Translations under genes and position numbers: made by a program
Assembly (NCBI GenBank): GCA_018668695.1
Contig: JABJBS010000383.1
Location: 16,753-80,752 of the forward strand
Reading direction: 5' to 3'
Length of the DNA stretch: 64,000 bases
Source: Deltaproteobacteria bacterium
GTDB taxonomy: Bacteria > Myxococcota > XYA12-FULL-58-9 > JABJBS01
The notes under the pieces: generated by a model
What the model saw: only the letters and a program-made list of their open reading frames with translations
The model's database searches: none
What the model was told of the DNA's origin: nothing
Part shown: positions 23,146-56,969 of the stretch, piece by piece
How the letters are laid out: every line of letters begins with the position of its first letter
How positions within the stretch are numbered: position 1 is the stretch's first letter

Positions 23146-23289
23146 TTTCGAACTCCCCAAACCAGATAATTGGACTAGACCACAATCAACCACATCCCCA
23201 GCCGTGGGTCCAGCTTCTGGTGCAGTTCTACCCTATTCTGGCCCTTCGTGCGTTCTTTCTCAAGTCACGAATCACTCGGTCGGAAATTC

Positions 23290-23370
23290 TTGCATTTTGG
23301 TAAAAGTATGCAAAAATTGCATAGACAACTGACTTCTTTGCATACTTGCCGAAAATTATCGTTCGGCAAG
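23290..23370. promoter_or_regulatory. pair of perfect 9-bp inverted repeats plus repeated TTGCAT motifs upstream of the minor-pilin operon
   Basis: GTATGCAAA (~23306-23314) and TTTGCATAC (~23337-23345) are separated by 22 bp. CTTGCCGAA (~23345-23353) and TTCGGCAAG (~23362-23370) are separated by 8 bp. TTGCAT occurs three times. Confidence 0.4.
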
Positions 23371-23389
23371 ATTTCATACTAGCCTGCAC

Positions 23390-31599: not shown

Positions 31600-32313
31600 A
31601 TGGCAGGTCCCGGAGATATTCGCTCAGGCAAAGCAGGCCCAATTCAGGTTCCAGCCACCGAGCAAAAGACCCAAGCTCAAGTTCAGAAAAAAGATGCGAA
31701 GAAGGTAAGCCCCCAAGATGCGGCAAGGCTTGCTCAGCAGGCAGGCTTTCACAAATCGAAGAGAGGCCGCGGAGGGTTCGATGTTGGGGATTCGTCCCAG
31801 GCGCCCATTCCATTGCCAGATGACGAACTCGATCCTGACGCCTGGAGTCAGCAAGGCCTTGATAATGCTCAGCAAACACTCAGCTCGGCCGGACCTCAAT
31901 TGGAGAGTGCCATTGCAGACTTAAAAGATGGTTTGGGTTTGGGAGAGGCTTTTGTCGAAGGGGCATTTATGCCCACTGAAAAAGATTTAGCCCGTTTACA
32001 GGCACTTAAAGAGCGTGAGCCTGAGCCTCAGCCGGATATGAACTCCGTTTCAGAGAGCTTAAAAAATCTTTTTGGGGTGGAGTTTAACGAGGATATGTCA
32101 GTGGCCGAACGTGCCATGGCTGTCGGCTTGATGGTTGCTGGGCAGTCAGAACAGGTCAAAATCGACGCCGGAACGATCAATCGAGAGGAACTTTTGGCTG
32201 GACTGCGAAAAGTCACTGAAAAAGGTAACCAATCAGTGGGCCAAGCGCAAAAGATGAATAAGGGAATTGACCAGCAATTGAACCTGCAGCGAACTTTCGT
32301 TTTTAAACGCTGA
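31600..32313 (+). CDS. hydrophilic low-complexity protein (237 aa), candidate chaperone substrate
   Basis: Strong RBS (taAGGAGtgtgtt ATG). No TM segment or signal peptide. Q/A/K-rich and predicted largely disordered or coiled-coil. Confidence 0.45.
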   Translation: MAGPGDIRSGKAGPIQVPATEQKTQAQVQKKDAKKVSPQDAARLAQQAGFHKSKRGRGGFDVGDSSQAPIPLPDDELDPDAWSQQGLDNAQQTLSSAGPQLESAIADLKDGLGLGEAFVEGAFMPTEKDLARLQALKEREPEPQPDMNSVSESLKNLFGVEFNEDMSVAERAMAVGLMVAGQSEQVKIDAGTINREELLAGLRKVTEKGNQSVGQAQKMNKGIDQQLNLQRTFVFKR

Positions 32314-33203: not shown

Positions 33204-34049
33204 ATGACATCACCTATTGGAAATAATCCAGGCCTCAGTATCCCTCAAATCCCAACGGCAGCTCAGCCGGCAGCCACTCCTGCAGCGGCTCAGGCGCAGC
33301 TACCAACAGACGGATTTGAGGCAGGTGGGCAAGCAGCCAACAATGCTGTGAATCAAATTCTTAGTAGCCTCGGGCTCGAGGTTGGAAACAGCACCATTGT
33401 TTCCCAGCTAAGCAGCAGCCAGCTTGGCCAACTCAGTGCAATTGGCGCGAGTATGAACGGTTCTTCTACCAGCGAGTTACAGGGACAGTTTGCAGAATTT
33501 CTTCAGGCAGGCCCAACGATTCATTACCAAGATGTGAACGCGCTGGTTCAGCAAGTGTTGCGCGAAGCTTATACGCAAAACACTGAAGACCTGCGTATGT
33601 ATGCTGAGAAAGTTAAAGACTTTAACAAGCAAAAAGAAATGATTCGTGACCACTTGAGCGATATGCGCAAAGAGCTAACGTCTGCGCGTGAAGGTGCGAT
33701 TTCAAGCGGCGTAACGGGTGATGATGCAATGAGCACACATGGCCTAAGCGGTGATGTTGTAGCTTACGACCCAGCTACCGCCACTGAAGGCAGTGACGCT
33801 CACGCCAAGATGATGATGGGAATGTCTTCTAGCCTTTCAGCTGGCGGCGTCGATACCATCGGTAAGCTCGAGGATGAAATCCAAACTTGGGAAGATAAGT
33901 TAAACAGTGTGGGCGACGATGCTCAGCTTGCAAACGTAGATCTTCAGAACATGCTTCAAAAGCAGCAGCAGACTTTGCAGATGATGAGTAATATCTCGAA
34001 AGCACTGCATGACACAGCAATGGCCATCATTCGTAAGATGGGCGGTTGA
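33204..34049 (+). CDS. coiled-coil protein (281 aa) with an EspA/needle-family-like C-terminal helix; candidate secreted filament/translocon-type substrate
   Basis: N-terminus MTSPIGNNPGLSIP parallels the preceding gene. Same upstream TTTTTGGAGTCT. C-terminal LANVDLQNMLQKQQQTLQMMSNISKALHDTAMAIIRKMGG resembles the conserved C-terminal heptad helix of EspA / T3SS needle / flagellin-type proteins. No TM segment. Confidence 0.5.
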   Translation: MTSPIGNNPGLSIPQIPTAAQPAATPAAAQAQLPTDGFEAGGQAANNAVNQILSSLGLEVGNSTIVSQLSSSQLGQLSAIGASMNGSSTSELQGQFAEFLQAGPTIHYQDVNALVQQVLREAYTQNTEDLRMYAEKVKDFNKQKEMIRDHLSDMRKELTSAREGAISSGVTGDDAMSTHGLSGDVVAYDPATATEGSDAHAKMMMGMSSSLSAGGVDTIGKLEDEIQTWEDKLNSVGDDAQLANVDLQNMLQKQQQTLQMMSNISKALHDTAMAIIRKMGG

Positions 34050-34113: not shown

Positions 34114-36387
34114 ATGGCAGTCGAAAAAATCGATATGCAAATTCAAGGCATGATTTCAGATGCGCAGATGCGCACTCAGAAAGATGTCGGAAAAGATGAT
34201 TCGGCGGATGCCGCACGGCGTGCCGCTGAGAAAAAAATAGCGGAACGAAAATCTTCTATGAAGTCGTCCGTGGTGCAAAAGGAAAGCTTCACCAAAGGGC
34301 CGCGACTTCAGCAAAAAATTCAGGATATCTTAGGCGGAAGCGCCGGGCAGGAAGCTGGCGATGCTTTGCAAAGTTGGGGTGACAACTCCAAGCTGCAAGG
34401 GAAGCTGAGCGACGCTCAAAAGCGCATGTTTCAAGAGGCGATGGTCAAAGACCCGCAAAAGGGCGCCAAGAGTGCCCAAGCCATGAATCGGATATCATCT
34501 CAGCCAGCATTTGAGCAGTCTGTGAAAGACTCTCAGCAGCTTGGAACCTTACAGCAATCGATCATTGAAAACCCAAGCCTTGAGAAACCAGCTGCGGAGC
34601 TTTTATCGAAGCGATTTATGACTTCCCCGAAAACCGATGGGGAGACCAAGCAGAGATTTATGCGATTTGGTCTCGACCAGGCGAAAAAGGGCGGTACGGA
34701 TTTCAAGCTCGGAAGCGTTAAGCATGCATCTGATATGCTCAACTCATTGAGCCAAGCTTCGATGCCAAAAGGCGCCCAAAAAGCGGCCATGAACATGGTT
34801 GAGCGCCAGCCAAGTGACACCAACGCAATGAACCAGGTTGATAGCTTCGCAAGCAAAGCAGATGTGCAAAAAATGCCGTCATTTGCCAAGGGCCGCGCCA
34901 CAGAGCTTTTAGCGAAAAGCGGCGGCGATGCTGAAGTAAAACAAGGCTTTGAGAAGCTTGCAGCGGATCCAAAGTTTCAAGCGCAATCTACACAGAACAA
35001 AGGTCGCTTTTTCGCAACGATAGGCAGCGGCAACGCGAATGAATTTCGCGCGCTCACCGATCAGTCATTGATGGCTTTACAGTCGAATTCATTTCCGAAG
35101 CGTGCGGGTAAAGTTGCAAGCTTGCTTACGAAGATGGCAAGCCAGGCTAAGACAGGGGGCGCCAAAAGCGTCGACGCCAATAGCCTCCTTAAAGGTAAGA
35201 CACGTACATCGACCTTGCCTACGCCGCCAAAGCTGACTTCCACAGAAGGCTTGGACGATGATGAAGCGCAAAAGGTTCGCTCTCAAAACCGGGGCCGGAT
35301 CATTCAGTTTTATACGCAAGTTCAACGCTCCTACGAACAAGCTGAAAAGAAGTTAAAGACCGCTCGCTTTATTGAAGACGTTAACAAGCTTCAAAACCTC
35401 AAAGAGGCGCCGCCGCTTGAAGCTTCGGTTTTATCGGCCGAAGAGCAAAAGTTTGTGATGGAGCGCCGAGAGTCGGTGAAGCAAAAGTTAGATCAGGTTA
35501 AGAAGTTCCAGCGTCAACGCGCCCGTGAACTGCGTGGGAAGCGGATGCCTCCGGCCCGTCGCCGTGCAAAAACAGCGGCAGCGCGCACCCGGGGCCGTCA
35601 GCCGAAGTACTTTTCTCCGGCATCGTCGCGGGCAACCACTGCAACTCAAGCTTTTCTGCAGGCAACCGGCACCGATGGTCGCCCAGGTTTGGCATCCACG
35701 CCTCAGCAAGGTTTACGACAAGCTGCCCAGGCTCAAACTTCACAAGGTGCCGGCGGTGATATTCAATCTCAAGTCGCAAGTGCTTTAGCTCAAATGGGCG
35801 GAGGACCGATGACGGCCGATAAGGCTGGGAAGGTCGCTCAAACCATCGCAAATCAGGTCGCCTCAGAGGTGGCAACTCAAGTGGCCCAGCAATTAATGGG
35901 AGGCCAGGCGCAAGGTGCAAAGCCATCTGCTCAGGGTCAAAAACCAGCAGCTCAAGGCCAAGTCGACGGTTGGGGAATCCCGCGAACGTTTGAGCGCGAT
36001 TTAGGCGCGGCATCAACTCGGCCCGTTAAAGAGCGTGCGGCTGTGGATACACCAGAGAGTGCACCCGGTATGAACGAGGCCCTAACCGAACGTTACACGG
36101 GCCGAACACTGGTCAAAGACCCATCACAAATTCGTATGTTGGTGGCTATTTTTCAGTCGAACTGGAAAGAGCTTAGCCGTGCAGAATCGGCATTGCTTCG
36201 AAACTTAGGTTGGACTCAGCAGCTTTGGGACACCCGGGAAACACCAGCGGCCAAGTGGCCTGTCGCGATGGCCACAGCGTTTGTAAATTTGAATCCAACC
36301 CAGCGCGAGGCTGTTCGCAGCCTCGGGATGAGTGCCCATGATTGGGATACGAAAATCCAGGGATTTACGATGGGTAAAAACGCCTAA
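34114..36387 (+). CDS. large (757 aa) K/Q/A-rich, predicted intrinsically disordered protein
   Basis: No TM segment or signal peptide. Recurrent KxxQK / AQ-rich segments. Strongly basic patch RELRGKRMPPARRRAKTAAARTRGRQPKYF. Only the C-terminal ~100 aa look globular (W-rich: WKELSRAESALLRNLGWTQQLWDTRETPAAKW). Confidence 0.5.
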   Translation: MAVEKIDMQIQGMISDAQMRTQKDVGKDDSADAARRAAEKKIAERKSSMKSSVVQKESFTKGPRLQQKIQDILGGSAGQEAGDALQSWGDNSKLQGKLSDAQKRMFQEAMVKDPQKGAKSAQAMNRISSQPAFEQSVKDSQQLGTLQQSIIENPSLEKPAAELLSKRFMTSPKTDGETKQRFMRFGLDQAKKGGTDFKLGSVKHASDMLNSLSQASMPKGAQKAAMNMVERQPSDTNAMNQVDSFASKADVQKMPSFAKGRATELLAKSGGDAEVKQGFEKLAADPKFQAQSTQNKGRFFATIGSGNANEFRALTDQSLMALQSNSFPKRAGKVASLLTKMASQAKTGGAKSVDANSLLKGKTRTSTLPTPPKLTSTEGLDDDEAQKVRSQNRGRIIQFYTQVQRSYEQAEKKLKTARFIEDVNKLQNLKEAPPLEASVLSAEEQKFVMERRESVKQKLDQVKKFQRQRARELRGKRMPPARRRAKTAAARTRGRQPKYFSPASSRATTATQAFLQATGTDGRPGLASTPQQGLRQAAQAQTSQGAGGDIQSQVASALAQMGGGPMTADKAGKVAQTIANQVASEVATQVAQQLMGGQAQGAKPSAQGQKPAAQGQVDGWGIPRTFERDLGAASTRPVKERAAVDTPESAPGMNEALTERYTGRTLVKDPSQIRMLVAIFQSNWKELSRAESALLRNLGWTQQLWDTRETPAAKWPVAMATAFVNLNPTQREAVRSLGMSAHDWDTKIQGFTMGKNA

Positions 36388-42965: not shown

Positions 42966-43787
42966 ATGCCGATTTTACAAGCTGATTTTGACCAAATACG
43001 CAAGCTGGTACTTGATCGGTCAGGTATCGTTTTAGATTCCAGCAAAATAGCAATGGTCGAACAAAAGATGGGCCCTCTGGCAAAAGATAACGGGGGCATG
43101 GATACCAGTACGCTTGCTCGCGATATTTTGAAGAACCCCAGTGGCTCACTCGCGACGAAACTAATTGAAGAGATCGCTACGCCGGAAACCGGGTTTTTCC
43201 GCGATAACCGTGCTTTTAAGGCACTTAAGCAAGAAGTCATCCCGCGCATCATCGAGAAACGCGGTGTAGAGCGAACTTTAAATATTTGGTCAGGTGGTTG
43301 TTCGACTGGACAAGAGCCCTACAGCATCGTGATGATGTTGCAGGAAAACTTTCCGCAGTTAAAAGGCTGGACGATTCGTTTTATTGCGACTGACATGTCT
43401 TCAAAAGTTCTCGAGCGTGCGCGCTCAGGAAAGTATACTCAGCTCGAAATGAACCGCGGATTGCCCGCACCTATGCTTCTTAAATACTTTCAGAAGCAGG
43501 GTCTAGAGTGGCAAGTTAAACCAGCGATTCGCAGCCTTATTGAATTTAGAGAATTCAATCTGGTTTCAAACTGGCCTCCATTGCCGAAAATGGACATTAT
43601 TTTTCTAAGAAACGTACTCGTGTACTTTCAGCCAGACACCAAGCGAACCGTGTTGGGTAAAGTTGCCGATACACTTCGTCCTGATGGTTTCTTGTTCATG
43701 GGAATGGCCGAAATTCCAATGACCCGTGAAAACAAGTTCGAGAAGCTCGATGTAGAGCGCTCAGGCTGTTTTGTTCTGCGTTCTTAA
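42966..43787 (+). CDS. cheR: chemotaxis protein methyltransferase CheR
   Basis: ILQADFDQIRKLVLDRSGIVLD (CheR N-terminal domain). SAM-binding IWSGGCSTGQEPYSIVM. Start trimmed to the internal Met; coordinates are tied to the track frame. Confidence 0.8.
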   Translation: MPILQADFDQIRKLVLDRSGIVLDSSKIAMVEQKMGPLAKDNGGMDTSTLARDILKNPSGSLATKLIEEIATPETGFFRDNRAFKALKQEVIPRIIEKRGVERTLNIWSGGCSTGQEPYSIVMMLQENFPQLKGWTIRFIATDMSSKVLERARSGKYTQLEMNRGLPAPMLLKYFQKQGLEWQVKPAIRSLIEFREFNLVSNWPPLPKMDIIFLRNVLVYFQPDTKRTVLGKVADTLRPDGFLFMGMAEIPMTRENKFEKLDVERSGCFVLRS

Positions 43788-43913
43788 GCCGCACATTCCC
43801 GTTTTATAACTGTCCCGCACAATCAATTTTCAGACGCTTAGGCATGATAGTCCACAGGTATACCTTGTGAGTATCTTAACCTACACGCAGTAGTTTGTCT
43901 GAAATTTACTGGG

Positions 43914-43945
43914 TAAAATAAAATGAAAGCGGGGATGAATCCCCG
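43914..43945 (-). terminator. rho-independent terminator for the minus-strand cheX-like gene
   Basis: cggggat-gaa-tccccg hairpin preceded on the plus strand by taaaataaaatgaaa. This is a U-tract on the minus strand, 14 nt past the stop at 43959. Confidence 0.6.
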
Positions 43946-43958
43946 TAGAACTTGAAGT

Positions 43959-44441
43959 CTAAGCTAGGTAGTTACCGACGATTGTGGCCTCGGTTGTGAG
44001 GCTTAAAAGCAGCTTTGATGAGCCGAGCTGAACGGGCATATGCCGCCATCGATCGTCATCTATAGAGTCGCTGAATTCACCTTTAGTAAGTACTTTCGGT
44101 AGGCCGAGGTTCTGGCTCAGGTTGAGGAACCCTTTAAGTTGACCCGCAAACATGTTGGATAACTCAGCCATGGTATCGCCGATCATATCGATTTCAACAT
44201 CCGTTGGCTCAAGCGCGAAGAGCGCTGATGCCAGCTGGGTGCAACCCTGAAGATCCGAGGATACTGCCACTGTGATGGGAGTAGGCCCAGGCATCGCAAG
44301 TACTCCCGTGCAATAAAGGAGATCCTTTTTCTGCTCGTTCGTTTGCGTAGCGCTGCAACTTTGCGAGTCTAAACTCAGCATGGTGCTCGTGATATTATGA
44401 AAGACCCCAATGAGGGTTTCGTTGTCTGGAATTGTTACCAT
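43959..44441 (-). CDS. CheX/CheC-like chemotaxis phosphatase family protein (paralog 1)
   Basis: 160 aa. DTMAELSNMFAGQLKG matches the E(L/I)xNxxxG motif of CheX/CheC. Paralogous to 47041-47505 and 58688-59158. Confidence 0.5.
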   Translation of the reverse strand: MVTIPDNETLIGVFHNITSTMLSLDSQSCSATQTNEQKKDLLYCTGVLAMPGPTPITVAVSSDLQGCTQLASALFALEPTDVEIDMIGDTMAELSNMFAGQLKGFLNLSQNLGLPKVLTKGEFSDSIDDDRWRHMPVQLGSSKLLLSLTTEATIVGNYLA

Positions 44442-44505
44442 TTTTACCTAAAGGCCTCGTAGTAATTACACTCTATATCCATCATGACGCATGCAAGAGA
44501 TTCAA

Positions 44506-45327
44506 TCAATCTTTGATGCGATAACAGCCAGCTCGAGCAGCGTTCACACGCTCAAATGAGCGGTCTACGCTCATCGGCATTTCTGCTGCTCCAAGAAACA
44601 AAAAGCCATTGGGCTTCATCAGCTCTTTGATCTTACCAAGTATCCGCCGTTTGGTCGGAACATCGAAGTAGATAAGTACGTTTCGTAGGAAAATAATGTC
44701 CATTTTGGGCATTGGAGGCCAGTTGGCGACTAAGTTGAGCTGTTTGAACTGAATCAAGTTGCGAAACTCAGGTTTCATCTGCCATTCGAGACCATCTTTT
44801 TGAAAATATTTCAGCAGCAGTGGCGCCGGTAGTCCACGGTTGATCTCAAGCTGGCTGTATCGACCCTGTCTCGCCTTATCTAAGATCTTGTTGGAAATAT
44901 CGGTGGCCACAAAATTTACTTTCCAGCTTCGTAGTTGAGGAAAGTGTTGATCGAGAATCATGGAGATCGTGTAGGGCTCTTGGCCGGATGACGAAGCCCC
45001 GCACCACATGGAGAGCGATCTCTCTGCGCGATTGTTCTCAAGTACGTTCGGAATGATTAGTTCTTGAAGCGCTTTGAACGGGTGCATGTCGCGAAAGAAA
45101 CTGGTTTCGTGAATCGTAATTGCTTCGGTGACCCGTTGAAACCAAACTTCAGTTCCCTTGGTCTTGAGCATTTTTACAAACTCTTCGATGGTTTTCAGGC
45201 CTGCCTCTTCAACGACAGGGCCCAGCCGAGACTCGACAAAGTAATGTTTGTTGTTGTCGAGGACGATCGCAGCGCGGTCCTGAATCAACTTTTGTACAAA
45301 ATCAAAATCTTGTTGTCGAAGTGCCAT
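44506..45327 (-). CDS. cheR: chemotaxis protein methyltransferase CheR (second copy)
   Basis: MALRQQDFDFVQKLIQDRAAIVLD... MWCGASSSGQEPYTISM. About 45% identical to the plus-strand CheR. Confidence 0.8.
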   Translation of the reverse strand: MALRQQDFDFVQKLIQDRAAIVLDNNKHYFVESRLGPVVEEAGLKTIEEFVKMLKTKGTEVWFQRVTEAITIHETSFFRDMHPFKALQELIIPNVLENNRAERSLSMWCGASSSGQEPYTISMILDQHFPQLRSWKVNFVATDISNKILDKARQGRYSQLEINRGLPAPLLLKYFQKDGLEWQMKPEFRNLIQFKQLNLVANWPPMPKMDIIFLRNVLIYFDVPTKRRILGKIKELMKPNGFLFLGAAEMPMSVDRSFERVNAARAGCYRIKD

Positions 45328-45381
45328 AGTGAGGCTCCCTAAATTTTTCTCGAACATGTACGTCCGAAAAATTTCTCAAGT

Positions 45382-46473
45382 CTATATTCGTTTTCGCACA
45401 GCCATTCTCGCTCTAACCTCTTCGGCTATCGCAGGGATGGGTAATATTTTTAGAGCTATTCCAGCATTGGCGATGTACCCGGGCATTCCCCAGACTACAG
45501 AGCTTGCTTCGTCTTGAACCAGTACTTCACCACCGGCTTCGTAGATCTTTTGGCTTCCTTTTAATCCGTCTGACCCCATGCCCGTCAGTACGACCGAGAG
45601 GCTGGAGGAGCCATAAACATCTGCTACGGATCTAAATAGTGTATCCACAGCGGGCCGGCAGGAGTTTTCAGGATCACCTTGATGGGTCTGGAGCCTTGGG
45701 CCGCTTGGTGCCTTGGTGACGACCATATGAAAGTTGCCTGGTGCGATCCAAACACAGCCTGGCTCGACGACCGTTCCTGAAACACACTCGAAACAACGGT
45801 GTCCGGTGTTGGCGGTCAGGCGCTCGGCGAGAATACTCGTAAAGATCGGCGGCATGTGTTGAACGATTAAAATCGGTACAGGAAAAGGCCGGGGCAAACA
45901 CTTTAAGAGCTCCGTCAAAGCATTTGGGCCACCCGTAGAAGTACCAATCGCAAGAATTCTTACAGGAAGCGGCTTGGGACGACGCCGGGAAGCATCTACG
46001 GCCTTTGTACCAGGAGGCAGCGGTTTGTAGCGGATGGGTTGCTTCACTAAAGCAGCGGAGCCGGTGCGACGTACAAATATTTTTATTTTCGGGATTAATT
46101 CTTCCCGAATGGTCTCTAGGGCAGAGCGCCCACCGGTACGACTCGATGGTTTGGTGACGTAATCAGTTGCGCCTTTGCTCAGTGCTTCTAGGGTAACCTT
46201 AGCGCCACGCATGGTCTGGGTGCTAAAGGCGATCACCGGAAGCCTTGCCTGGGTCTTACGAATACGCTCAAGCGTTTCGAGACCGTTCATTTCGGGCATA
46301 TCCATGTCCAAAATGACAACGTCAGGCTTTAAGGTGGGTATCTTTTTGAGCGCTATCTTCCCATTAGCGGCGGTGCCGACAACAGTGAGAAGAGGATCAC
46401 TCGATATAATATCGGAAAGCATTCTGCGGACGACAACTGCATCGTCCACAATCAGAACGCGAATAGAGCCCAC
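45382..46473 (-). CDS. cheB: chemotaxis response regulator protein-glutamate methylesterase CheB
   Basis: REC (IRVLIVDDAVVVRRML...DMDMPEMNGLETL) plus methylesterase (AIGTSTGGPNAL; catalytic HMPPIFT). Confidence 0.85.
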   Translation of the reverse strand: MGSIRVLIVDDAVVVRRMLSDIISSDPLLTVVGTAANGKIALKKIPTLKPDVVILDMDMPEMNGLETLERIRKTQARLPVIAFSTQTMRGAKVTLEALSKGATDYVTKPSSRTGGRSALETIREELIPKIKIFVRRTGSAALVKQPIRYKPLPPGTKAVDASRRRPKPLPVRILAIGTSTGGPNALTELLKCLPRPFPVPILIVQHMPPIFTSILAERLTANTGHRCFECVSGTVVEPGCVWIAPGNFHMVVTKAPSGPRLQTHQGDPENSCRPAVDTLFRSVADVYGSSSLSVVLTGMGSDGLKGSQKIYEAGGEVLVQDEASSVVWGMPGYIANAGIALKILPIPAIAEEVRARMAVRKRI

Positions 46474-46476
46474 AGA

Positions 46477-46845
46477 TCAACTCGTTAGCCCAAGAATCTC
46501 CAGCTTTTCAGCGATCATCTCTTTGGTAAACGGCTTCATGAGGTACTCATTGGCGCCGGCCTCTAGGGCTTTTGCCATTTGTGAGATTTCACTCTCCGTC
46601 GTGACCATCATAACATTCAGGTCATTGTACTTGGAATCTGCTCGAATATTACAGAGAAATTCGTACCCGTTCATTTCGGGCATGTTCCAGTCGACGAGTG
46701 CGAGATCGGGAACGCCGATTTCGCCAAGCTTTGTCAATGCTTGTTTGCCATCACCTGCTTCAAATACCTCGAAGCCGAGGTCTTTGAGAATCTTGCCGAT
46801 GATACGGCGAATAGCTTTGGAGTCATCAACTACCAGTGCACGCAT
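46477..46845 (-). CDS. cheY: chemotaxis response regulator CheY
   Basis: MRALVVDDSKAIRRI...DWNMPEMNGYEFL...MVTTESE...EYLMKPF. Single-domain receiver. Confidence 0.8.
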   Translation of the reverse strand: MRALVVDDSKAIRRIIGKILKDLGFEVFEAGDGKQALTKLGEIGVPDLALVDWNMPEMNGYEFLCNIRADSKYNDLNVMMVTTESEISQMAKALEAGANEYLMKPFTKEMIAEKLEILGLTS

Positions 46846-47040
46846 GTAAATTATCCGTCTCGAAAGGTTTTCAGCCCTTAACTGCTTACTTTCATAATCC
46901 TACCGCTCAACGGTATTGGTTTCCCTGATTTGGGTCAATCACCAATGTGACAGCTCCAAATCGCCTTAAGGTCCCCATTTAGATTACTTATAAAAATAAC
47001 TCCAAAGTCACTTCGGAGCAAATATTAGCTATTTTATATT

Positions 47041-47505
47041 CTAAGCTTCCGGTACATATTTCCAAACTTCCACGCGAAACCAGACACCTTCTGACTCCAT
47101 TGTGGCAGCCCCAATGGGCTGACAGTGTGGAATATCCACCGTTAACTCGATTCCTTCTGTGATCGTAGGAAGGCTCAGCAGGCTCTTTGGCGCGAGCTTT
47201 CCTTTGATCAATCCGCCCACTTGGTTGGCCAGTTCGCCAACCGCATCGTGAACATCTTCAGCTTCAACTTCGTCTGTTTCCATTCCGAAAATATGGCCTG
47301 CCGACATTTTAGCCAATCTATTTTCGAAATCTAGCGTTACGCCGCCCTTCCAAGTGCCTTCTAGCAAAATGGAACCAATGGTTGCGCGACCCTGTGGACG
47401 ATCATCGCCTCCACGGTCAGCTTTCAATATCAAACCAAATCCTAGCATCGGGGCCCAAACTTGCTGGGTAATCCGAAAGATCTCTTCAGCTGAAATACTA
47501 TCCAT
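47041..47505 (-). CDS. CheX/CheC-like chemotaxis phosphatase family protein (paralog 2)
   Basis: 154 aa. DAVGELANQVGGLIKG motif. Confidence 0.5.
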   Translation of the reverse strand: MDSISAEEIFRITQQVWAPMLGFGLILKADRGGDDRPQGRATIGSILLEGTWKGGVTLDFENRLAKMSAGHIFGMETDEVEAEDVHDAVGELANQVGGLIKGKLAPKSLLSLPTITEGIELTVDIPHCQPIGAATMESEGVWFRVEVWKYVPEA

Positions 47506-47805: not shown

Positions 47806-48381
47806 CTAAGGACTATTGGCCACGATCGTGGCTCCTTGATTCACGAGGTATTTCACCAACTCTGTATGCGATCCTGCAATTGCGGTGACCAAAACGGTGA
47901 ATCCACCCTCATCTTGCGCATTGATATTTGCTCCTGAGCCCAGCAATCTTTTTACACTTTTTAGGTCTCCGGATTCAGCGGCCGCCAAAAGAAGTTCGTT
48001 CTGACCGAGTCCTTCACCAAAAAGTCTTTTCGATTCATCATTATTTTTTGGCTTTTCTAAGCCTGTTTCGGCTCCTTGTTTGACCAAAAAATCAACGATC
48101 GCGACATTGTAGTTGGCCATTGCATTCACAAGCACACGAAAACCGTATTCATCAGCAGCGTTTACATCTGCGCCAGCTTCGACGAGTGATTTTACTGCTG
48201 CGATATCGCTAGCAAGAACCGCCTCGATCAGTGGAACCGGCTCTGTAGCCGCAGGGGCCACAGAGGCCACAGAGGCCTTTGGTACGGCTTGTGGTTGAGC
48301 CACGGGTACAGCGGAGCCGGAACAGGCTGTCAGGCTCAGTGACAGTGTCAGCAGAGCTCTCATGATCTTTGAATCAAGCAT
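47806..48381 (-). CDS. ankyrin-repeat lipoprotein
   Basis: Lipobox LSLSLTACSG. Three or four ANK repeats (LIEAVLASDIAAVKSLVEAGADVNAADEYGFRVLVNAM...; LLLAAAESGDLKSVKRLLGSGANINAQDEGGFTVLVTAIAG). Start trimmed to the internal Met. Confidence 0.65.
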   Translation of the reverse strand: MLDSKIMRALLTLSLSLTACSGSAVPVAQPQAVPKASVASVAPAATEPVPLIEAVLASDIAAVKSLVEAGADVNAADEYGFRVLVNAMANYNVAIVDFLVKQGAETGLEKPKNNDESKRLFGEGLGQNELLLAAAESGDLKSVKRLLGSGANINAQDEGGFTVLVTAIAGSHTELVKYLVNQGATIVANSP

Positions 48382-48463
48382 ACTTTCCCCCTTGTAAGAG
48401 CAGCTCAAGCTAGCTCGGCGCCATGGGGGAGTCAAACAATGTGGAGGGGACGGGAATCAGGAA

Positions 48464-49270
48464 TTAGAAGCGGCTGCGAATAGCCCAAAGATCCGGAAAG
48501 AGCGGCGTAAAAAGGGTTTTACGCAGGTATTCTGCACCCGCTGAGCCGCCGGTACCTATTTTGGCGCCGATGGTACGCTCGACCATCTTAACGTGCCGGT
48601 AGCGCCATTCTTGAACACCCTCATCAATGTCGACCATGAGTTCACAAATAAGGGTAATCACCGGAGCATTCTTGTAAACCTCGAGCAAAGCATCCTGGAT
48701 TTTTTCGTCTGGATGAATAGAATCTTCTCTTGGATATGGTTTTTCGGGCATTGGGATCCCGTGCCCTTTATCGCGCAGATACTGCAGAAAAGTCTCGTAT
48801 AAGCTTGGCTTATCCATGCGCTCTTCAATGCGGCGACGCTGCTCAGAGCCCTCTGGATGGGTCTTTAAAAGCGCTGCACTTCTCTTGCCCAGAGCACATT
48901 CAAATTCTCGAAACTGCGCCGATTGAAAGCCGCTGGAGGTCGATAATCGATCTCTAAAAGATTCGAAGCTCATAGGCGTCATCGTTTCAAGGATATCAAT
49001 TTGAGACACCATCGTTTTTAAGATGGTGCGCATTCGCTTCATCGTATGCAGTGCAGTCGGGGTTTCACCTTGGGCGAGTTTGACCGCTAAATAGTCGATC
49101 TCGTGCAACATTTGTTTGAACCAAAGTTCATAAACTTGGTGAATGATGATGAAAAGAAGCTCATCGTGTTCGGGCCCGTCTGAGAGCTCATTTTGAAGTT
49201 TTAGGAGCTCGTTAACCTGAAGGTAACTCGTATAGGTGACTTCCATTTTTTGATTCCTTGATCCGGGCAA
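48464..49270 (-). CDS. kynA: tryptophan 2,3-dioxygenase
   Basis: YTSYLQVNELLKLQ...DELLFIIIHQVYELWFKQMLHEIDY. TDO family signature including the proximal-His region. Confidence 0.8.
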   Translation of the reverse strand: MPGSRNQKMEVTYTSYLQVNELLKLQNELSDGPEHDELLFIIIHQVYELWFKQMLHEIDYLAVKLAQGETPTALHTMKRMRTILKTMVSQIDILETMTPMSFESFRDRLSTSSGFQSAQFREFECALGKRSAALLKTHPEGSEQRRRIEERMDKPSLYETFLQYLRDKGHGIPMPEKPYPREDSIHPDEKIQDALLEVYKNAPVITLICELMVDIDEGVQEWRYRHVKMVERTIGAKIGTGGSAGAEYLRKTLFTPLFPDLWAIRSRF

Positions 49271-51400
49271 TTATTCTGAACACCACTTGCGGATCATGCG
49301 AACCAAAACTTCCTTATTGGCAGGGAGGCTAATGATGTCGCTCATGCCTGCTTTTAAACAAGATTGTGCTTCCACTTTTTGGGTGTCACCGGTCATACCG
49401 ATGACGGGAACATTGCCACTTGTGCGACTTAAGGTCAGCAGGGCATCCAAACTTTTTCCAGCCAGGGAGTCGATAGCTAGCAAAATGAGATCGAAGCTCA
49501 CTTTAGAAATCTCGTTGACCGCCTCGGCCATGGAGCAAGAGGGGACCACTTGAGTGCCGAGTTGGCTTAAAAGCTTTAAACTTTGTGCTTCCGTGGTGGG
49601 ATTGTCATCAATAAGGAGAATTTTTTTATTTTTGAAAAGTTCTTCTCGGGCGCTGTGCCTTGTGATGATCGGATTTTGCCCGCTTTGCGGTTCGGTGCCG
49701 AAAATAGTGCATAGAACGTCACGCATCGCCCCGCGGGGAACTGGTTTCGGCAAATATCCTTCAAATCCGATCGATTGGCAGAGCCTAGCGGAGCCAGGGC
49801 TTGCTTCAGAAGTAAGGACGACCAAGTGAATGCCACGAAAAGAGGGGTGGCTCGTAAACTGCCGCATCGCTTCGGGTGCTTCAAGATCGGGCCGCATCAT
49901 ATCAATCAGAGCCACTTCGGGTTTATTTTCTGTCTTTGATAGGTGCCCGAGTGCCTCTGTTACCGAGCTAAAAGCCAGCGGCTTCATACCCCACTCCTTC
50001 AGAGTGCGGGAGGTAATGGAGAGAGCGACCCGGTTATCGTCGATTAGAATTGCAGTGCGTCCCTCAAGCTCGGTTGAGCGAATCGGTGGATGAGCCCGGT
50101 GGGCTATGGACGCCTTGTCGAGGTTGATTTGGAAACAAAAAGTACTGCCTTCTCCTACCGTGCTGTCCACCCACATTTGGCCGCCCATTTGTTCGACTAA
50201 GTTCTTGGAGATAGCCAGCCCCAAGCCGGTTCCTCCAAACTTTCGGGTGGTTGAACCGTCAGCTTGCCTAAAGGACTCGAAAATAACGGACTGTTGATCT
50301 TCGGCGATTCCAATCCCGGTATCTTCAACCGCAAATTGGATGGCAATGGTCTCGTCGTTTTCTTCTTCGACACAGGTGCGAAGAATAATATGGCCCTCGG
50401 CGGTAAACTTAGCGGCATTGTCCACAAGGTTCATCAGGATTTGACGAACACGGGTCGGATCGCCCGAGACAGTGCTGGGGATGTTTTCAATATCAACGAT
50501 AAATTCTACAGGGCTGTCTTTAAAGCGTCGTTTGATAATGTCACAAACATCAAAGAGCATCAGCTCGAGGTCAAAATCGATATTATCCAGAGCCAAGCTC
50601 TGGCTTTCAACCTTGGAGAGGTCGAGAATCTGGTCGATGATCCCCATGAGGTTATCTGCTGAATGTTTAATAAATTCAACGGACTCCAGATGCTCGGGGC
50701 TGAGGTCTTCATCGTCTACGAGGATATCCACAAAGCCAAGGATGCCGTTCATCGGCGTGCGAATCTCGTGGCTCATATTGGCCAAAAACTCACTTTTGAT
50801 GCGGTTGGCTGCCACCAGCTCATCACGTGCCGCTTGGATCTCACGGGTGCGGCTTTGCACCATGCTCTCGAGCTCCTCACGTTGCATCTCGGCGAAACGG
50901 GCCAAGCTCCATTTGCGGGTGAGTGAAATGGCAAGCTGGCTCACCTCAACATTATCGAACGGTTTTTTAAGAATCAGAAGCCTGTCTGTATGACCGAGGC
51001 GTTCAATGATCTCTCCCCAGGAGTAATCTGCAAAAGCCGTACAGATGACAACTTGAATATTGGGATCGACTTTCCAAAGGTGCTCGATGGTTTTTAAGCC
51101 GTCCCAGCCAGGTGGCATGCGCATGTCTACAAACGCAACGGCAAATGGTTTACCGTTTTCCATGGCTTGCTGGGCCTTTTGAAGCCCTTCGGCTCCTTGG
51201 CTTGCGAAGGTTAATTCAAAGCCTGCTCCCATGGATTGGGCATCGCCGGAATTATCCTCACCAAAGAGGCTCGCTTCGAGATCTTCGAGTTCCCCAGCAT
51301 GGTCCTCGGCGGAGAGAATTTTACGAAAATCCTCATGAATTGCCTCGTTGTCATCAACGACAAGGATTCTGCTGTTATCGTTTTCATCAGCTCTAAGCAT
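49271..51400 (-). CDS. hybrid sensor histidine kinase with three receiver domains (REC-HisKA-HATPase-REC-REC)
   Basis: [14 protein letters not shown] (REC1). [14 protein letters not shown] (H-box). [19 protein letters not shown] (G2-box). [11 protein letters not shown] and [11 protein letters not shown] (REC2/3). The stop abuts the kynA ATG. Confidence 0.8.
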
Positions 51401-53270
51401 TGTGGTCACCTGCAAAGACTAATGGCATTTCAAGAATAAAGGTAGCCCCTTTGCCCTCTCCTGCGCTGGATGCCGTTAAAGAGCCCCCCATTTCGGTAGC
51501 CGCGATGGCCCCTGTGTGGAGTCCGAAACCGTGCCCGGTTTTTTTCGTGGTAAATCCGTGGGCGAAAATACGGGTTAAGTTGTCTTCTGAAATCCCGGTT
51601 CCAGTGTCTTCTACTGTCACCTGCACATTCGGACCTTCCACTCGGTGGATAGCAATGAAAAGCTTTTTTGTACTTTCAGGGTTTTCGGTGATTGCTTCGC
51701 ATGCGTTTTTCACCAAATTCACAAGAATTTGGAGCACTTTCTGCTTCTCAAGCATAATTGTAGGGAGGAGCAACTCACCTGTTCTGACGATCTGAACTTG
51801 GCCTCGGTCGATGGCCAATCGGTTAATGTGAACGGCGTCTTCCACAAGCTCTTGGAGTGAGAGTGATTCTGCTACGCCCGCAACTTTTGCGTACGATTGC
51901 TGGAGTCCGACGATATCTTTGATGTGGGCAATGTTTTTGGTCAGTGTTTGCATCTCACCAAGCAAAAGCTCGCGCTCGTCGTCGACCTTGTCCGCCAAGA
52001 GGCCAAGGTAGCGGGGGAGCTGTTTGCCACGTGAGTCGTTTGTTAAGAAGTTGCCGATATCTTCGTCATTCTCTTTGAGCATGTTGGTCACTTTACGCAG
52101 CCCCATGGCTTGAGAGGTGCGGACTTTGTCGGCTACGAGCGTTGCGGAGACGTTGACGCTGTTGAGCACATTTCCAACGTTATGAAGAACTCCGGTGGCC
52201 ACTTCTGCCATACCCGCTTGGCGTGAGGTCTCAAGCAGTTGGGCCTGCATTTCTGTGAGCTGAGCTTGCGCTTTTTTACGTTCCTGGATTTCGTTGGTGA
52301 GGTTATCGTTTGCCTTTTTAAGGGCAATCGCCTGCATCTCAAGGCTTGCGATGTTGCTTTCGATAGCGGCCTGGTGGTTTTTCAAGTTGGCAGCCATCGT
52401 ATTCATGGCTTCACCTAAGGTGTCGTATTCTGATGCGAGCGCGACCTTCACGGAGAGATCACCGGCTGCGATATCTTCGGCAAGACGCACTTTATTATTA
52501 AGGTTATCGGCAAACTCATCCATGGCCCGAGCCATTCGGCCAATTTCATCGTTGGTATCAATGCGCAGTCTTCTCTCGAGACGGCCGCGCCCTAAATCCT
52601 CAAGCATCCGAACGGTTCTCGCGAGCGGTCGTGTGATAAGCCGATTAATTGCCAGCTGCATGATGACACTTGAAGCAGCGATGGCGATCACAAAGGCCAA
52701 GAGGTTCAGCCTTTGACCCTGCTCTGTATCTTTGACGACGGCTTTTAAGCCTTGCTTAAGTTCTTTTGAGAAGACGTCGGCTAGGTTGACGAGCTCTTTG
52801 AGAAGAACTTGTTGTTCTTGCCTCAGATTCCCCATTTGTTTGCCGATGCTGGGATCGTTGAGCGTTCCGGCGGCGCTTGCGGCGTAGACTTCGTTGGCCG
52901 TTCGGGTAAACGCGGCGAGTTTGCGACTGAAGTTATGCACCTCTGCAACATTGTCCATATTCAAGTTTACAAGTTGAGTGAGCTGCTCCAGCGAGTCACG
53001 TACCCGTTCCCCGTACTCTTGAGCGCGCTCGACTTGGCTGGGTTCGCCAAGAACGACGGCATTTTCATAAAGCTTTAACTGGTTTTCAAATGCCGACAAA
53101 GCTTGTTGACTGTAGCGAGTGGCTGGAAAAAGTGTGTCGGTGGTGTCTTCAAGCAAGCGAATATTTTCGATACCCACGACCACGCTCAAAACCATCGAGA
53201 AAAGATACCCGAGAATGATGATGCTGGTGGAAAGTAAAATCTTTCCATTGATCTGTAAGGCTATTCGCAC
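51393..53270 (-). CDS. membrane sensor histidine kinase with HAMP domain
   Basis: N-terminal TM, ~170-aa periplasmic/4HB region, second TM, HAMP ([24 protein letters not shown]). Kinase core ([16 protein letters not shown]; [20 protein letters not shown]). Confidence 0.75.
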
Positions 53271-53280
53271 CGAGCTCCCC

Positions 53281-54651
53281 TTAGCTTCCGCTGATGGTCA
53301 TGTCTTGAATTCGAATAGAGGGAGCGCGGGTAGAGCCTTTGACCATGAGATCATTACCGACGCAATCTACGTTTTGCAGCATCTCTAAGAGGTTACCGGC
53401 AATGGTGACTTCTTGAACAGCATGCACAATTTCTCCGTTTTCAACCCATAGACCATTGGCGCCCCGCGAGTACTCTCCGGTAATCGCATTAAGCCCGCGT
53501 CCCAGACCTCGGGTGAGGATGAGGGCTCGAGGTACCGAACTTAGCATTTCTTTGAGCGAGGTTTGCCCGGGCTCAATACAGAAATTATAGGTACCGATTG
53601 ACGGCATGCCGGTAGCTCCTCGCCGGCCATTTGCAGTTGAGCTGACGCCGACCTTACGAGCAGTGTAACTGTCATAGAGAAAAGTTGTCAGTTTTCCGCG
53701 GTCTAAGATGCGTTTCGGGTAAGTGGGTAGCCCCTCGCCATCAAATGGGGTGCTCGCAAGCCCGCGATAAACGTGAGGATCGTCAATCATGGTGATATCC
53801 GGCGAGGCGATTTGCTCACCCAGTTTATCTCCCAAAAATGAGGCCTTTTTGTAGACAAGATCACCATTGATGGCGCCGATAAGGCCACCGAGCAAACCCG
53901 CGGCAATCATTGGTTCAAAAATAACCGCGGCCTTTTGAGTGGCTACCGGTTTAGCTCCAAGCATACGCGCAGCCCGGGCGGCAGCGTTTTGGCCAATGGA
54001 TTCCATACTTTCAAGATCTTCAAGATGCGCCCGCGAATCATACCAAACTTCTGTTTGAAGTTGACCATCGGCTTCTGCAATGGGGTTGCACCACGCGCTG
54101 ATCCCAGTTCCCCGAGTTGTTCGAATGGTGCCGGTTGAGGTTTGCAGCGCAGACCATGATTCGCCAGAGGCAATGCCGCTGTCGCGAAACTTTTGAACCC
54201 TTGAATCGGTATCTCGGGCCGCTTGTTCCAGGGTATGGGCCATCCGAATTTTTTCGTCTGTAGATAAAGCGGCGATTGAAGGATCGTAGGGATCAAATTG
54301 GCTACCAGCATCAAGGGTACCTGACTCGGCGCGAGCAATATCGTTAAATTCGTCTTCCTCAACCTCATGGGCCATGGCAACCGTTCGTTCAACGAGCGCT
54401 TGAAGGCTCGATTTTCTGAAATCGCTGGTGGTGCAAAACCCAAGTTTTTTTCCGACGAAAACACGCAGCCCAACAGCTTTGGCCGTGGCCTGAGTGAGCG
54501 TACCGATTTTTCCGCTTTCGACTTTAACCTCAAAGTCGGTTCCGTAAGAGGCCATGCTGTCGGCCAGATCGACCCCAGCAGTTTTCGCGAGCTTTAAAAG
54601 CTCAGACGTAACTTCCAGAAGGGGCTCATGACTTAACTCGTTTTGTTCCAT
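53281..54651 (-). CDS. pmbA: TldD/PmbA-family metalloprotease (PmbA/TldE-like)
   Basis: TldD/PmbA fold. C-terminal GEYSRGANGLWVENGEIVHAVQEVTIAGNLLEML. Confidence 0.7.
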   Translation of the reverse strand: MEQNELSHEPLLEVTSELLKLAKTAGVDLADSMASYGTDFEVKVESGKIGTLTQATAKAVGLRVFVGKKLGFCTTSDFRKSSLQALVERTVAMAHEVEEDEFNDIARAESGTLDAGSQFDPYDPSIAALSTDEKIRMAHTLEQAARDTDSRVQKFRDSGIASGESWSALQTSTGTIRTTRGTGISAWCNPIAEADGQLQTEVWYDSRAHLEDLESMESIGQNAAARAARMLGAKPVATQKAAVIFEPMIAAGLLGGLIGAINGDLVYKKASFLGDKLGEQIASPDITMIDDPHVYRGLASTPFDGEGLPTYPKRILDRGKLTTFLYDSYTARKVGVSSTANGRRGATGMPSIGTYNFCIEPGQTSLKEMLSSVPRALILTRGLGRGLNAITGEYSRGANGLWVENGEIVHAVQEVTIAGNLLEMLQNVDCVGNDLMVKGSTRAPSIRIQDMTISGS

Positions 54652-54670
54652 TGTGCAGTATCCCCTTTAC

Positions 54671-56092
54671 CTATTGGCTTATGCCGGTGCCGCCAACCGT
54701 GACGTCGTCCATGCGAATGGTTGGCATACCCACGCCCACAGGTACTGTTTGACCATCTTTTCCGCAGCTTCCAATACCAGGATCCAGCTCTGGGTTGTTG
54801 CCCACCATGGATACGTTCTTCATGGCTTCAGGGCCGACGCCGATGAGCGTGGCATTTTTCACTGGCGCTGTGATGCGCCCGTTTTCAATCAGGTAACCTT
54901 CGCGGACTTCAAAGACAAAGTTTCCGTTGGAGATATCGACCTGCCCGCCACCAAAAGATGCGCAGTAGAGGCCATTTTGAACGCTTTGAATAATCTCTTC
55001 GTGAGTATGGGGACCCGGTGCCATGTAGGTATTGGTCATGCGGGGCATGGGTGCGCACTTGTAGTTTTGTCGCCGCCCACTGCCGGTGGATTCAATTCCC
55101 ATAATACTGCCTGAGAGTTTATCGACCATATACCCCTTAAGAATGCCGTTTTCGATAAGTACTTTTTCTTTCGCGACGGTGCCTTCGTCGTCAACGTTGA
55201 GTGAACCGCGCCGATTCATAAGCTCGCCGTTGTCGATGACCGTCACAAGATCTGAGGCGACCTGTTCTCCGAGCTGCCCGGCATAAAGAGATGTCGCTTT
55301 GTGAATAAAGTCTGCTTCAAGTCCGTGACCCACAGCTTCATGCAAGAAAACGCCGCTCCAGCCAGGGCTCAGTACAACGGTTTGAGGACCGGCCGGTGCA
55401 GCTCCCGCCCCTATTTGGGAGATCGCCATACGGGCTGCTTCGGTGGCGACCATCTCGGGATTGAAATCAGTGAAAAAGTCAAAACCCACACGTCCGCCGC
55501 CGCCATGGCTTCCAGTGTGTCGCTCGCCCTTTTCATCAATGACCATCGCCATAAAACTCAGCCGGCACATCGTGCGCCGGTCGTCGACGAGTGTTCCGTC
55601 ACTTGTGGCGATGAGGATATCTTTGGTGCTGTCGGAGAAGCTTCCCATCACCTGGGTGATACGAGGGTCGTACGCGTGGGCCACTTCGTCGCCGCGTTTA
55701 AGTAAGGCGACTTTTTCTGCTGGCGCAATGCTGTCGGGGGCTACGTTGATGGGGTAACGGTTTGGGACAGGACACGCTTTGATTTGAATCGGGCCAGGGC
55801 TTCCGCCTTCTTTGGCAATTGAAGCGGCGACCTCTGCGGTTTTTTTCAAAGCGGCAGGGTCTAGGTCATCGCAGTAGGCGTAACCAACTTCTGTGCCGGC
55901 GATGACTCGAATTCCAACCCCCATGGATACGCTATGGGCCGTGGCTCGAATTTTTTTCTCTTCCAATGAAACGCTGCTGGCAGTGGTTCGTTCCACGTAG
56001 ATATCGGCTGCGCTTGCTCCACGTCCCATGGCGATGCTGAGCAGTTCTTCGAGAAGGGATACCGGAACGGACTGTGTGAGCTGTGTTTGCAT
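54671..56092 (-). CDS. tldD: metalloprotease TldD
   Basis: HEAVGHGLEAD (HExxxH). C-terminal GGGQVDISNGNFVFEVREGYLIENGRITAPV typical of TldD. Confidence 0.8.
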   Translation of the reverse strand: MQTQLTQSVPVSLLEELLSIAMGRGASAADIYVERTTASSVSLEEKKIRATAHSVSMGVGIRVIAGTEVGYAYCDDLDPAALKKTAEVAASIAKEGGSPGPIQIKACPVPNRYPINVAPDSIAPAEKVALLKRGDEVAHAYDPRITQVMGSFSDSTKDILIATSDGTLVDDRRTMCRLSFMAMVIDEKGERHTGSHGGGGRVGFDFFTDFNPEMVATEAARMAISQIGAGAAPAGPQTVVLSPGWSGVFLHEAVGHGLEADFIHKATSLYAGQLGEQVASDLVTVIDNGELMNRRGSLNVDDEGTVAKEKVLIENGILKGYMVDKLSGSIMGIESTGSGRRQNYKCAPMPRMTNTYMAPGPHTHEEIIQSVQNGLYCASFGGGQVDISNGNFVFEVREGYLIENGRITAPVKNATLIGVGPEAMKNVSMVGNNPELDPGIGSCGKDGQTVPVGVGMPTIRMDDVTVGGTGISQ

Positions 56093-56162: not shown

Positions 56163-56969
56163 TTACGATGATGGAGCACTGGTGATTTCGCTTAAAATTT
56201 GCTCACACAACTGGGCGTTCCAAAGAATGCTCAAATGACCTGAGCCGCCGAGGCTACTGACGCGTTGACCGAAGCAGGCTGACTCTGCGGGAATGATTTG
56301 GCTGTCGAGTGGGCTGTGGAATGTAAGCACGCAGTCGCCAGGTTCGTGATTTAAAGCCTGGAGCAAGGGTGAACCCGGTTGGAGCTGAAAGCCAAGCTGA
56401 CCCGGCATAAAAACCGCAAGACGGGTTCCGTGGTGCGGCGTAGCGACGGTGAAAGTTGCTTGGCAATAGCGCCCAGGACTTTGGGATGGTCCGAGGCGTG
56501 CAGCGAGCCCGGCGATACCGTGGGCGACGAGGTAAGGTTTTTCTCCGCCAATCAGGCTGCTGAAGCGTTCGAGTTCTTCACATAAGTTGTCGGCCATACG
56601 GTCAATAGCCCCACGTGAAAAAGCAACGGGTAGGATGTAGACATTACGTGCGCCTTTTGCCCGGAGGGATTTGTAAAGCCCGTACATCGGTCCTCCCCAG
56701 CCCCACAATGTGCCGCTGACCAAGCAAATGGGCGGTCCTCCATTGGGGTCGAACTCTCTTCTTTTGTGCATGATGATGGCCCATGGGCACAGTGCCACGG
56801 CTACCAGCGTTGCTAAGAAGTTTCCAAGAGCGGCTTCGGCATAATCTCTAATAATGGAGGGGCCTGCGGTGCGCCCACTGCTTACGCTATCGAAGTGGTG
56901 AATCGCGGCGGCCAAGACTTCGCCAATAACTAAGACCGTTGAGATAAACTGTAAAAGAAATAGGATCAT
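56163..56969 (-). CDS. membrane-anchored alpha/beta-hydrolase-like (lipase-like) protein, possibly non-catalytic
   Basis: N-terminal TM. ICLVSGTLWGWGG and VYILPVAFSRG resemble small bacterial lipase/PGAP1-like folds. The nucleophile elbow reads AHGIAG (Ser replaced by Gly). Confidence 0.3.
   Translation of the reverse strand: MILFLLQFISTVLVIGEVLAAAIHHFDSVSSGRTAGPSIIRDYAEAALGNFLATLVAVALCPWAIIMHKRREFDPNGGPPICLVSGTLWGWGGPMYGLYKSLRAKGARNVYILPVAFSRGAIDRMADNLCEELERFSSLIGGEKPYLVAHGIAGLAARLGPSQSPGRYCQATFTVATPHHGTRLAVFMPGQLGFQLQPGSPLLQALNHEPGDCVLTFHSPLDSQIIPAESACFGQRVSSLGGSGHLSILWNAQLCEQILSEITSAPSS

Follow-up and report, generated by a model that had tools for sequence, protein, structure and literature searches.

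The 64,000-nucleotide stretch of contig JABJBS010000383.1 analysed here (hereafter, the window), which comes from a Deltaproteobacteria bacterium assembly (GCA_018668695.1), carries a compact group of che genes that is a genuine, well-conserved set of ordinary chemotaxis accessory genes, an unsurprising variant of a known system. Judged by gene order and sequence relationships, this cassette appears to be the adaptation and signal-termination half of the operon type cheA-cheW-mcp-cheY-cheB-cheR-cheX, in a marine lineage in which the kinase, coupling-protein and receptor genes are no longer at the locus, cheR has been duplicated and a second cheX stands before cheY. We consider it probable that the cassette works in trans with cheA, cheW and mcp genes encoded elsewhere in the genome.

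Gene content and protein families of the cassette

Pathway genes were identified from a list of open reading frames (ORFs) with coordinates combined with Pfam scans, and alignments to E. coli CheY, CheB and CheR were used for the functional residues. On the minus strand lie cheX2 (47041-47505; 154 aa, CheX PF13690, 52.9 bits), cheY (46477-46845; 122 aa, a single-domain response regulator with a REC domain), cheB (45382-46473; 363 aa, REC and CheB_methylest domains, 201 bits), cheR2 (44506-45357; 283 aa, the operon-internal methyltransferase, with CheR PF01739 at 185 bits and CheR_N) and cheX1 (43959-44441; 160 aa, PF13690 at 32.0 bits, with the gathering cut-off at 27). Convergent with them, on the plus strand, is cheR1 (42966-43787; 273 aa, PF01739, 191 bits), which encodes another protein-glutamate methyltransferase, while cheX3 (58688-59158, minus strand; 156 aa, PF13690, 56.1 bits) lies 11.2 kb from the cassette. 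The first-pass annotation of this DNA, made from the sequence alone, had described such a gene set within 4.5 kb; the ORFs are indeed found there, and their identities are upheld by Pfam. It had also placed cheX3 between rny and an nrnA-like gene, which holds for the position and less well for the names, as the RNase Y match of the former neighbour is full-length but sub-threshold (TIGR03319, 320 bits vs a cut-off of 454) and the match of the latter is limited to the DHH N-domain. Since the six-gene arrangement is found again in at least eight independent contigs, the clustering of the che genes is not a matter of chance. Most of these proteins are already named by family in public records.

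In each feature that a sequence can reveal, the proteins appear to be regular members of the CheX, CheY, CheB and CheR families. CheY is 48% identical to its E. coli counterpart and retains D12, D13, D57, T87, the switch residue Y106 and K109; its best NCBIfam model is CheY, with a score below the equivalog cut-off (101 vs 189 bits). CheB passes the NCBIfam CheB subfamily model NF001965 (380 bits, cut-off 293) and keeps both the phospho-acceptor D56 and the Ser-His-Asp triad (S164, H190, D286). CheR1 and CheR2 share 49% identity, and each has 31-35% identity with E. coli CheR; the alignment to the latter shows the catalytic residues kept in both. For the CheR_N domain the cut-off of 27 bits is exceeded by CheR2 (39.7 bits), whereas CheR1 falls short of it (21.4 bits). 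In a neighbour-joining tree of CheR proteins, the CheR1 and CheR2 clades of the lineage are sisters, and the nearest outgroup is a Myxococcota metagenome-assembled genome (MAG) with a complete che cluster (L025; L numbers are our handles for contigs and loci). Thus, the second CheR is a lineage-specific duplicate. Both window CheR proteins are also about five residues shorter than E. coli CheR in the beta-subdomain segment (E. coli ...RGTGPHEGLV...). An insertion in the CheR beta-subdomain is a mark of the enzymes that dock on the receptor C-terminal pentapeptide, and, if this meaning of the insertion is right, CheR1 and CheR2 may both be pentapeptide-independent.

The three small proteins, which the first-pass annotation had called CheX-like and left to a profile comparison, all exceed the PF13690 cut-off with the scores given above. 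Each contains one motif (DTMAELSN in CheX1, DAVGELAN in CheX2 and DTFGELAN in CheX3), and the D, E and N residues, together with a downstream Pro, are invariant in their three-way alignment. The consensus proposed earlier, D-x-x-G-E-L-[AS]-N-x-x-[AG]-G, is common to the three proteins except at its fourth position, which has to be written [GA] because CheX1 carries Ala in place of Gly there; the corrected form is D-x-x-[GA]-E-L-[AS]-N-x-x-[AG]-G, and CheX1 reads DTMAELSNMFAG. The core D-x3-E-x2-N is present in 57 of the 61 CheX-like ORFs of related loci. Park and colleagues, whose study is cited in PMC10542144, are said to have described, in 2004, the phosphatase site as D/S-x3-E-x2-N, with catalytic Glu and Asn in the solved CheX proteins. 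A CheX protein has one such site, on its central helix, followed by a conserved Pro, within about 150 aa; in the longer proteins CheC and FliY there are two.

The AlphaFold model of CheX2 (predicted local distance difference test score, pLDDT, 89.4) was compared with known structures by Foldseek, and its 13 best matches in the PDB are all CheX or CheX-like proteins (among them 3H4Y, 3HM4, 6VPW, 3H2D, 1XKO, 3HZH, 3IIC and 1SQU), with CheC, FliY and FliM ranking lower in the list. Hence CheX2 is predicted to adopt the CheX three-dimensional fold. When set against the CheX phosphatases of Thermotoga maritima (1XKO/1SQU) and Borrelia burgdorferi (the CheX-CheY3 complex, 3HZH), the window paralogs are alike in their size of about 150-160 aa, in exceeding the PF13690 threshold, all three of them, and in having a single D-x3-E-x2-N site on a long central helix, and the predicted fold of CheX2 agrees with those structures at template modelling (TM) scores of 0.60-0.75. 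They differ in that the sequence identity of CheX2 to the solved CheX proteins is only 15-23% and in that three deeply diverged paralogs occur here in one genome region.

This divergence is the starting point of an alternative that we regard as unlikely, namely that, in an otherwise working cassette, one or more of the paralogs, with CheX1 and the unlinked CheX3 as the candidates, would not be a phosphatase of phosphorylated CheY (CheY-P) but would have another role, for instance as a CheY-P-binding adaptor or as a phosphatase of some other receiver domain, such as those of the hybrid kinase described below. The paralogs are only 19-24% identical in pairwise comparison; CheX1, the most divergent of them, is barely above the Pfam cut-off (32 vs 27 bits) and matched no NCBIfam model; cheX3 stands in a non-che context; and the middle domain of FliM, which is not an enzyme, has the CheC/CheX/FliY fold as well, as the Foldseek list illustrates. 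Against this, all three proteins carry the D-x3-E-x2-N motif with the downstream Pro, and orthologs keep the motif, those of CheX1 at 55-88% identity. In Campylobacterota, moreover, an unlinked cheX with conserved unrelated neighbours is still counted as a chemotaxis component (PMC9321776). The cheX1 gene is placed as the cheX after cheR in complete operons, while CheX3 gives a weak match to the Thermotogales CheX equivalog of NCBIfam and is already named CheX at NCBI (MBT6177899.1).

Relation to complete che operons and conservation in the lineage

A scan of a genome collection with CheB returned two syntenic relatives (L002 and L003) and 78 more distant loci from many phyla, with CheB proteins 48-58% identical, and che genes were mapped on all of these loci by phmmer. 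Outside the lineage, cheA and mcp lie upstream of cheB, on the same strand, in 48 of the 54 loci with at least 7 kb of upstream sequence; cheY directly precedes cheB in 26 of 78, and a cheX gene follows within 2.5 kb downstream of cheB in 22 of 66. About 20 of the 48 loci with cheA and mcp upstream extend to cheA-cheW-mcp-cheY-cheB-cheR-cheX, a form that is often followed by another cheY or cheX (for example L011, L017, L025, L041, L048, L052 and L057). The complete operons, which occur in MAGs of Planctomycetota, Verrucomicrobiota, Acidobacteriota, Nitrospirales, Competibacteraceae and Myxococcota, are the closest relatives of the cassette outside its lineage. From this comparison we conclude that the window carries the back half of an operon of the cheA-cheW-mcp-cheY-cheB-cheR-cheX type. 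Compared with the complete operons of L011, L017, L025, L041 and L048, its cheY-cheB-cheR-cheX genes have the same order and orientation, the CheB proteins are 50-57% identical, and CheY, CheR and CheX are best mutual matches; unlike those operons, the window lineage has no cheA-cheW-mcp front half at the locus and has an extra cheX (cheX2) before cheY as well as the duplicated, convergent cheR1. The arrangement is a widespread operon type that has been split and elaborated in this one lineage.

Two of the earlier interpretations find no support in this comparison. CheX-like components had been described as over-represented, but this is not peculiar to the window locus: Pirellulaceae clusters (L052, L057 and L063) also carry more than one cheX, in the order cheY-cheB-cheR-cheX-cheY-cheX. 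An alternative, non-motility pathway of the myxobacterial type had been suggested as well; the closest relatives, however, are ordinary complete operons across phyla, CheY resembles the E. coli protein to the extent given above, and no sign of a non-motility output was found among the neighbours of the closest relatives' che loci. Assignment to the alternative-cellular-function (ACF) class or an F class would need a CheA, since the scheme of Wuichet and Zhulin relies on phylogenomic markers in CheA, CheW, CheB and CheR (summarised in PMC9321776).

Within the lineage, we compared the window with L002 (CheB 92% identical), L003 (CheB 63%) and further contigs found through CheB homologs with 57-88% identity (L083/L084, L085, L086, L087, L088 and L089), of which L085 comes from the Kilo Moana vent; the NCBI labels on the MAGs of this lineage read 'Deltaproteobacteria', 'Bdellovibrionales' or 'Myxococcota'. 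The order cheX2-cheY-cheB-cheR2 is present in all the looked-up contigs (L083/L084 and L085-L089), followed, where the contig extends far enough, by cheX1 and the convergent cheR1 and then by glmS-glmU. A cheR1 ortholog is found in L002, L003, L083 and L085-L088. On the upstream side, the neighbours in the lineage are a hybrid kinase gene and a tryptophan 2,3-dioxygenase (TDO) gene, joined in some contigs by a gene for an ankyrin protein or a fatty-acid hydroxylase; L003 and L083 have the HAMP kinase and tldD genes as well.

In the comparison with L003, CheY is 98% identical, CheX2 76%, CheR1 68%, CheB 63%, CheX1 58% and CheR2 (ortholog by the CheR tree) 56%, with GlmS at 57%; these values show the che genes to be at least as constrained as housekeeping genes. 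CheY identity stays at 91-99% across relatives in which that of GlmS falls to 57-68%, the cheY genes of the window and L003 differ by 68 synonymous vs 4 nonsynonymous codon differences, and the C-terminal 44 residues of CheY (78-121) are invariant in all nine lineage contigs. The cheY gene is under very strong purifying selection; for a response regulator such constraint is unusually strong, and it fits a protein that has to suit many partners. By its pattern of conservation, the cassette is clearly functional.

The genes cheY, cheB, cheR2 and cheX1 are tightly packed, with gaps of 3, 24 and 64 bp, and a consensus scan, which gives pattern matches only, detected a terminator-like GC hairpin with a T-run at 43930-43945 (minus strand), 14 nt past the cheX1 stop codon, that is the probable end of a cheY-cheB-cheR2-cheX1 operon. 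The same scan placed another terminator-like hairpin with a T-run directly after the cheX2 stop codon (46999-47019, minus strand); it is partly conserved in close relatives and suggests that cheX2 may be transcribed apart from the four genes that follow. About 65 nt upstream of cheY stands a sigma-70-like block, TTGACC-N17-TA[CT]CGT (46910-46938, minus strand), that is unique in the window and is kept in most lineage contigs when the cheX2-cheY spacers of nine contigs are aligned, and this block is the probable promoter of the cheY operon. No sigma-28-like site was found upstream of cheY, cheX2 or cheR1, and Rfam models matched nowhere in the window. A sigma-54-like string, GGCACGGGCATTGC, again a pattern match only, is present at 42843 on the plus strand, between glmS and cheR1.

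Partners of the cassette and competing explanations

It is common for che genes to be divided over several loci, and intact CheR and CheB imply that methyl-accepting substrates exist. In the mechanism that we favour, a CheA-CheW-receptor array encoded elsewhere would phosphorylate both CheY and CheB, the latter on its receiver domain; adaptation would come from methylation of the receptors by CheR1 and CheR2 and their demethylation by phosphorylated CheB; and CheX1, CheX2 and CheX3 would dephosphorylate CheY-P through their conserved Glu/Asn pair, terminating the signal. We infer these enzymatic activities, as we do the operon structure, the partners elsewhere and the reason for keeping two CheR proteins. 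We prefer action in trans because all the proteins are canonical, CheY is of the CheA-associated type, CheR and CheB need methyl-accepting substrates, and scattered che genes have a precedent (PMC9321776).

This precedent is the F3 class of Campylobacterota, in which che genes (cheY, cheZ and cheX) are scattered, each beside conserved unrelated genes (PMC9321776). There, as in the window lineage, components lie away from cheA, are conserved and are vertically inherited, and cheX, like cheX3 of the window, has housekeeping genes of unrelated function as its neighbours (PMC9321776). The two cases differ in phylum and class, and the scattered genes of Campylobacterota are single (PMC9321776), whereas in the window five to six genes, cheB and cheR among them, have stayed together as a block. 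Our literature searches found no description of this cassette arrangement.

Several observations weigh against action in trans with distant partners. The presence of these partners elsewhere in the genome is an assumption. As the first-pass annotation had noted for the neighbourhood, the kinase, the coupling protein and the receptors are absent nearby: Pfam scans, which covered 50 ORFs, detected no CheA, CheW or MCP domain in any of the window's main ORFs (140 aa or longer), the window reaching 42 kb beyond the cassette in one direction and 16 kb in the other, and phmmer searches with E. coli CheA, CheW and Tar gave no match among window ORFs of at least 60 aa. That annotation had also considered that a complete cheA-cheW-mcp set just outside the window would make this an ordinary che operon. 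By exact-protein look-ups we reached a further approximately 6 kb on the left (L001), with genes for a radical SAM protein, a glycosyltransferase, shikimate dehydrogenase, FAD synthase and dihydrolipoyl dehydrogenase, and approximately 7 kb on the right, with an NHL protein, unknowns and ATP synthase genes; neither flank contains che genes, and therefore no such set adjoins the window within this distance. Nor did the available flanks of the lineage contigs L002, L003 and L083-L089 contain cheA, cheW or mcp. Such separation from cheA is atypical, as the corresponding blocks of the relatives are almost always physically linked to it. When the CheA of L025, the nearest complete cluster, was used as a query for the lineage's own CheA, thousands of CheA proteins were returned at a flat 57-66% identity, and two candidates among them are on short contigs from unrelated samples with no link to the lineage.

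Adjacent to the cassette, on the side where complete operons carry cheA-cheW-mcp, which we regard as context only, are two kinase genes: a HAMP sensor histidine kinase (51393-53270, minus strand, by Pfam) and, overlapping it, a hybrid kinase of 714 aa with the architecture REC-HisKA-HATPase-REC-REC (49271-51415, minus strand, by Pfam). Possibly these kinases have replaced cheA-cheW-mcp, phosphorylating CheY and CheB directly or by relay, with CheX resetting the signal, so that the cassette would be a CheA-independent module; we find this very doubtful. Their position on that side of the cassette, an adjacency that persists in L002, L003, L083 and, partially, in L086 and L088, is in its favour, as is the lack of any DNA-binding response regulator encoded near them in the Pfam results. 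A kinase that shares the unusual core of the window HAMP kinase (286 bits) is encoded in a Verrucomicrobiota MAG (L026, 2039-3448), where the genes immediately downstream of it are cheX, one for a receiver protein and a full cheA-cheW-mcp-cheY-cheB-cheR cluster, a single instance. Extra kinases in che-like clusters are known too, such as CheS3 of the Che3 cluster of Rhodospirillum centenum (PMC3868531). The R. centenum system and the window share classical or hybrid histidine kinases beside che genes, but clusters of the Che3 kind retain CheA, CheW and MCP, all three of which the window cassette is without. In the window, the link between kinases and cassette is one of gene adjacency.

On the other side, the synteny of glmS-glmU and of tldD is equally well conserved, and the kinase adjacency may therefore be plain synteny. 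The kinases are separated from cheY by variable genes (TDO, ankyrin, fatty-acid hydroxylase), by gaps of 300 and 195 bp and by a terminator-like site, and no Hpt domain that could serve a relay was detected by Pfam or NCBIfam. Their divergence proceeds at an ordinary rate (48-53% identity to their L003 counterparts, where CheY is 98% identical); moreover, the hybrid kinase of L003 (3418-4734; 438 aa) is REC-HisKA-HATPase only, without two of the REC domains, which were gained or lost within the lineage. CheR and CheB would be left without an evident substrate, an MCP signalling domain being absent from the HAMP kinase, and CheY is typical of the CheA-type proteins. We considered the HAMP kinase as a methyl-accepting protein and rejected this, since the MCPsignal model does not match it and what lies between HAMP and the H-box is another HAMP-like segment together with a coiled coil. 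A more far-reaching version, that the CheA-CheW-receptor core has been lost genome-wide, with the cassette driven by the HAMP and hybrid kinases, seems highly improbable to us; a chemotaxis-type module for adaptation and termination would then have been attached to a classical two-component kinase, and the targets of CheR and CheB would be orphan receptors or something other than an MCP.

Lastly, a decaying remnant of a lost chemotaxis operon, with no current function, would account for the local absence of cheA, cheW and mcp, but this explanation is effectively refuted by purifying selection: all six ORFs are intact with their catalytic residues kept, the cassette is retained across contigs as divergent in GlmS as described above, cheY has the excess of synonymous codon differences already given, the promoter-like block upstream of cheY is conserved, and the 78-90% nucleotide identity among lineage contigs excludes recent transfers of a single sequence.

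Other genes of the window and significance

The TDO gene (48464-49270, minus strand) begins one base past the hybrid kinase stop codon, and this kinase-TDO pairing occurs again in L002, L083 and L088 and is absent from L003 and L086. Next comes a gene for a lipoprotein-like protein with ankyrin repeats (47806-48435), which some relatives have in this place too. Directly upstream of the HAMP kinase gene, across a 10-bp gap, are two tandem TldD/PmbA-family metallopeptidase paralogs (53281-56092, minus strand), an arrangement kept in L083 and, as regards one of the copies, in L003. Farther away, a PilZ-domain gene (22759-23193, minus strand) adjoins a type IV pilus minor-pilin set (within 22759-30936) that comprises an N-methyl pilin, PilW-like and PilX-like proteins, a GspH/FimU-like pilin and a 1600-aa PilY1-like protein with FG-GAP repeats (25616-30418). 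This set shows the organism to have type IV pili; no flagellar genes are present in the window. Four ORFs had no Pfam match: 31600-32313, 33204-34049, 34114-36387 (757 aa) and 56163-56969 (268 aa, with no NCBIfam match either); the 757-aa gene is conserved beside a TPR gene in L083 and L086.

As it stands, the cassette is of little significance in itself, every protein belonging to a well-known family, and it would gain interest only if the genomes of the lineage were truly without CheA. Its modest value is that it shows the splitting of the cheA-cheW-mcp-cheY-cheB-cheR-cheX operon and the duplication of cheR in an uncultured marine lineage. Moreover, a nearly invariant CheY (98% identical where GlmS is 57%) together with three diverged CheX proteins makes a natural system for asking why a cell would keep several CheY-P phosphatases.

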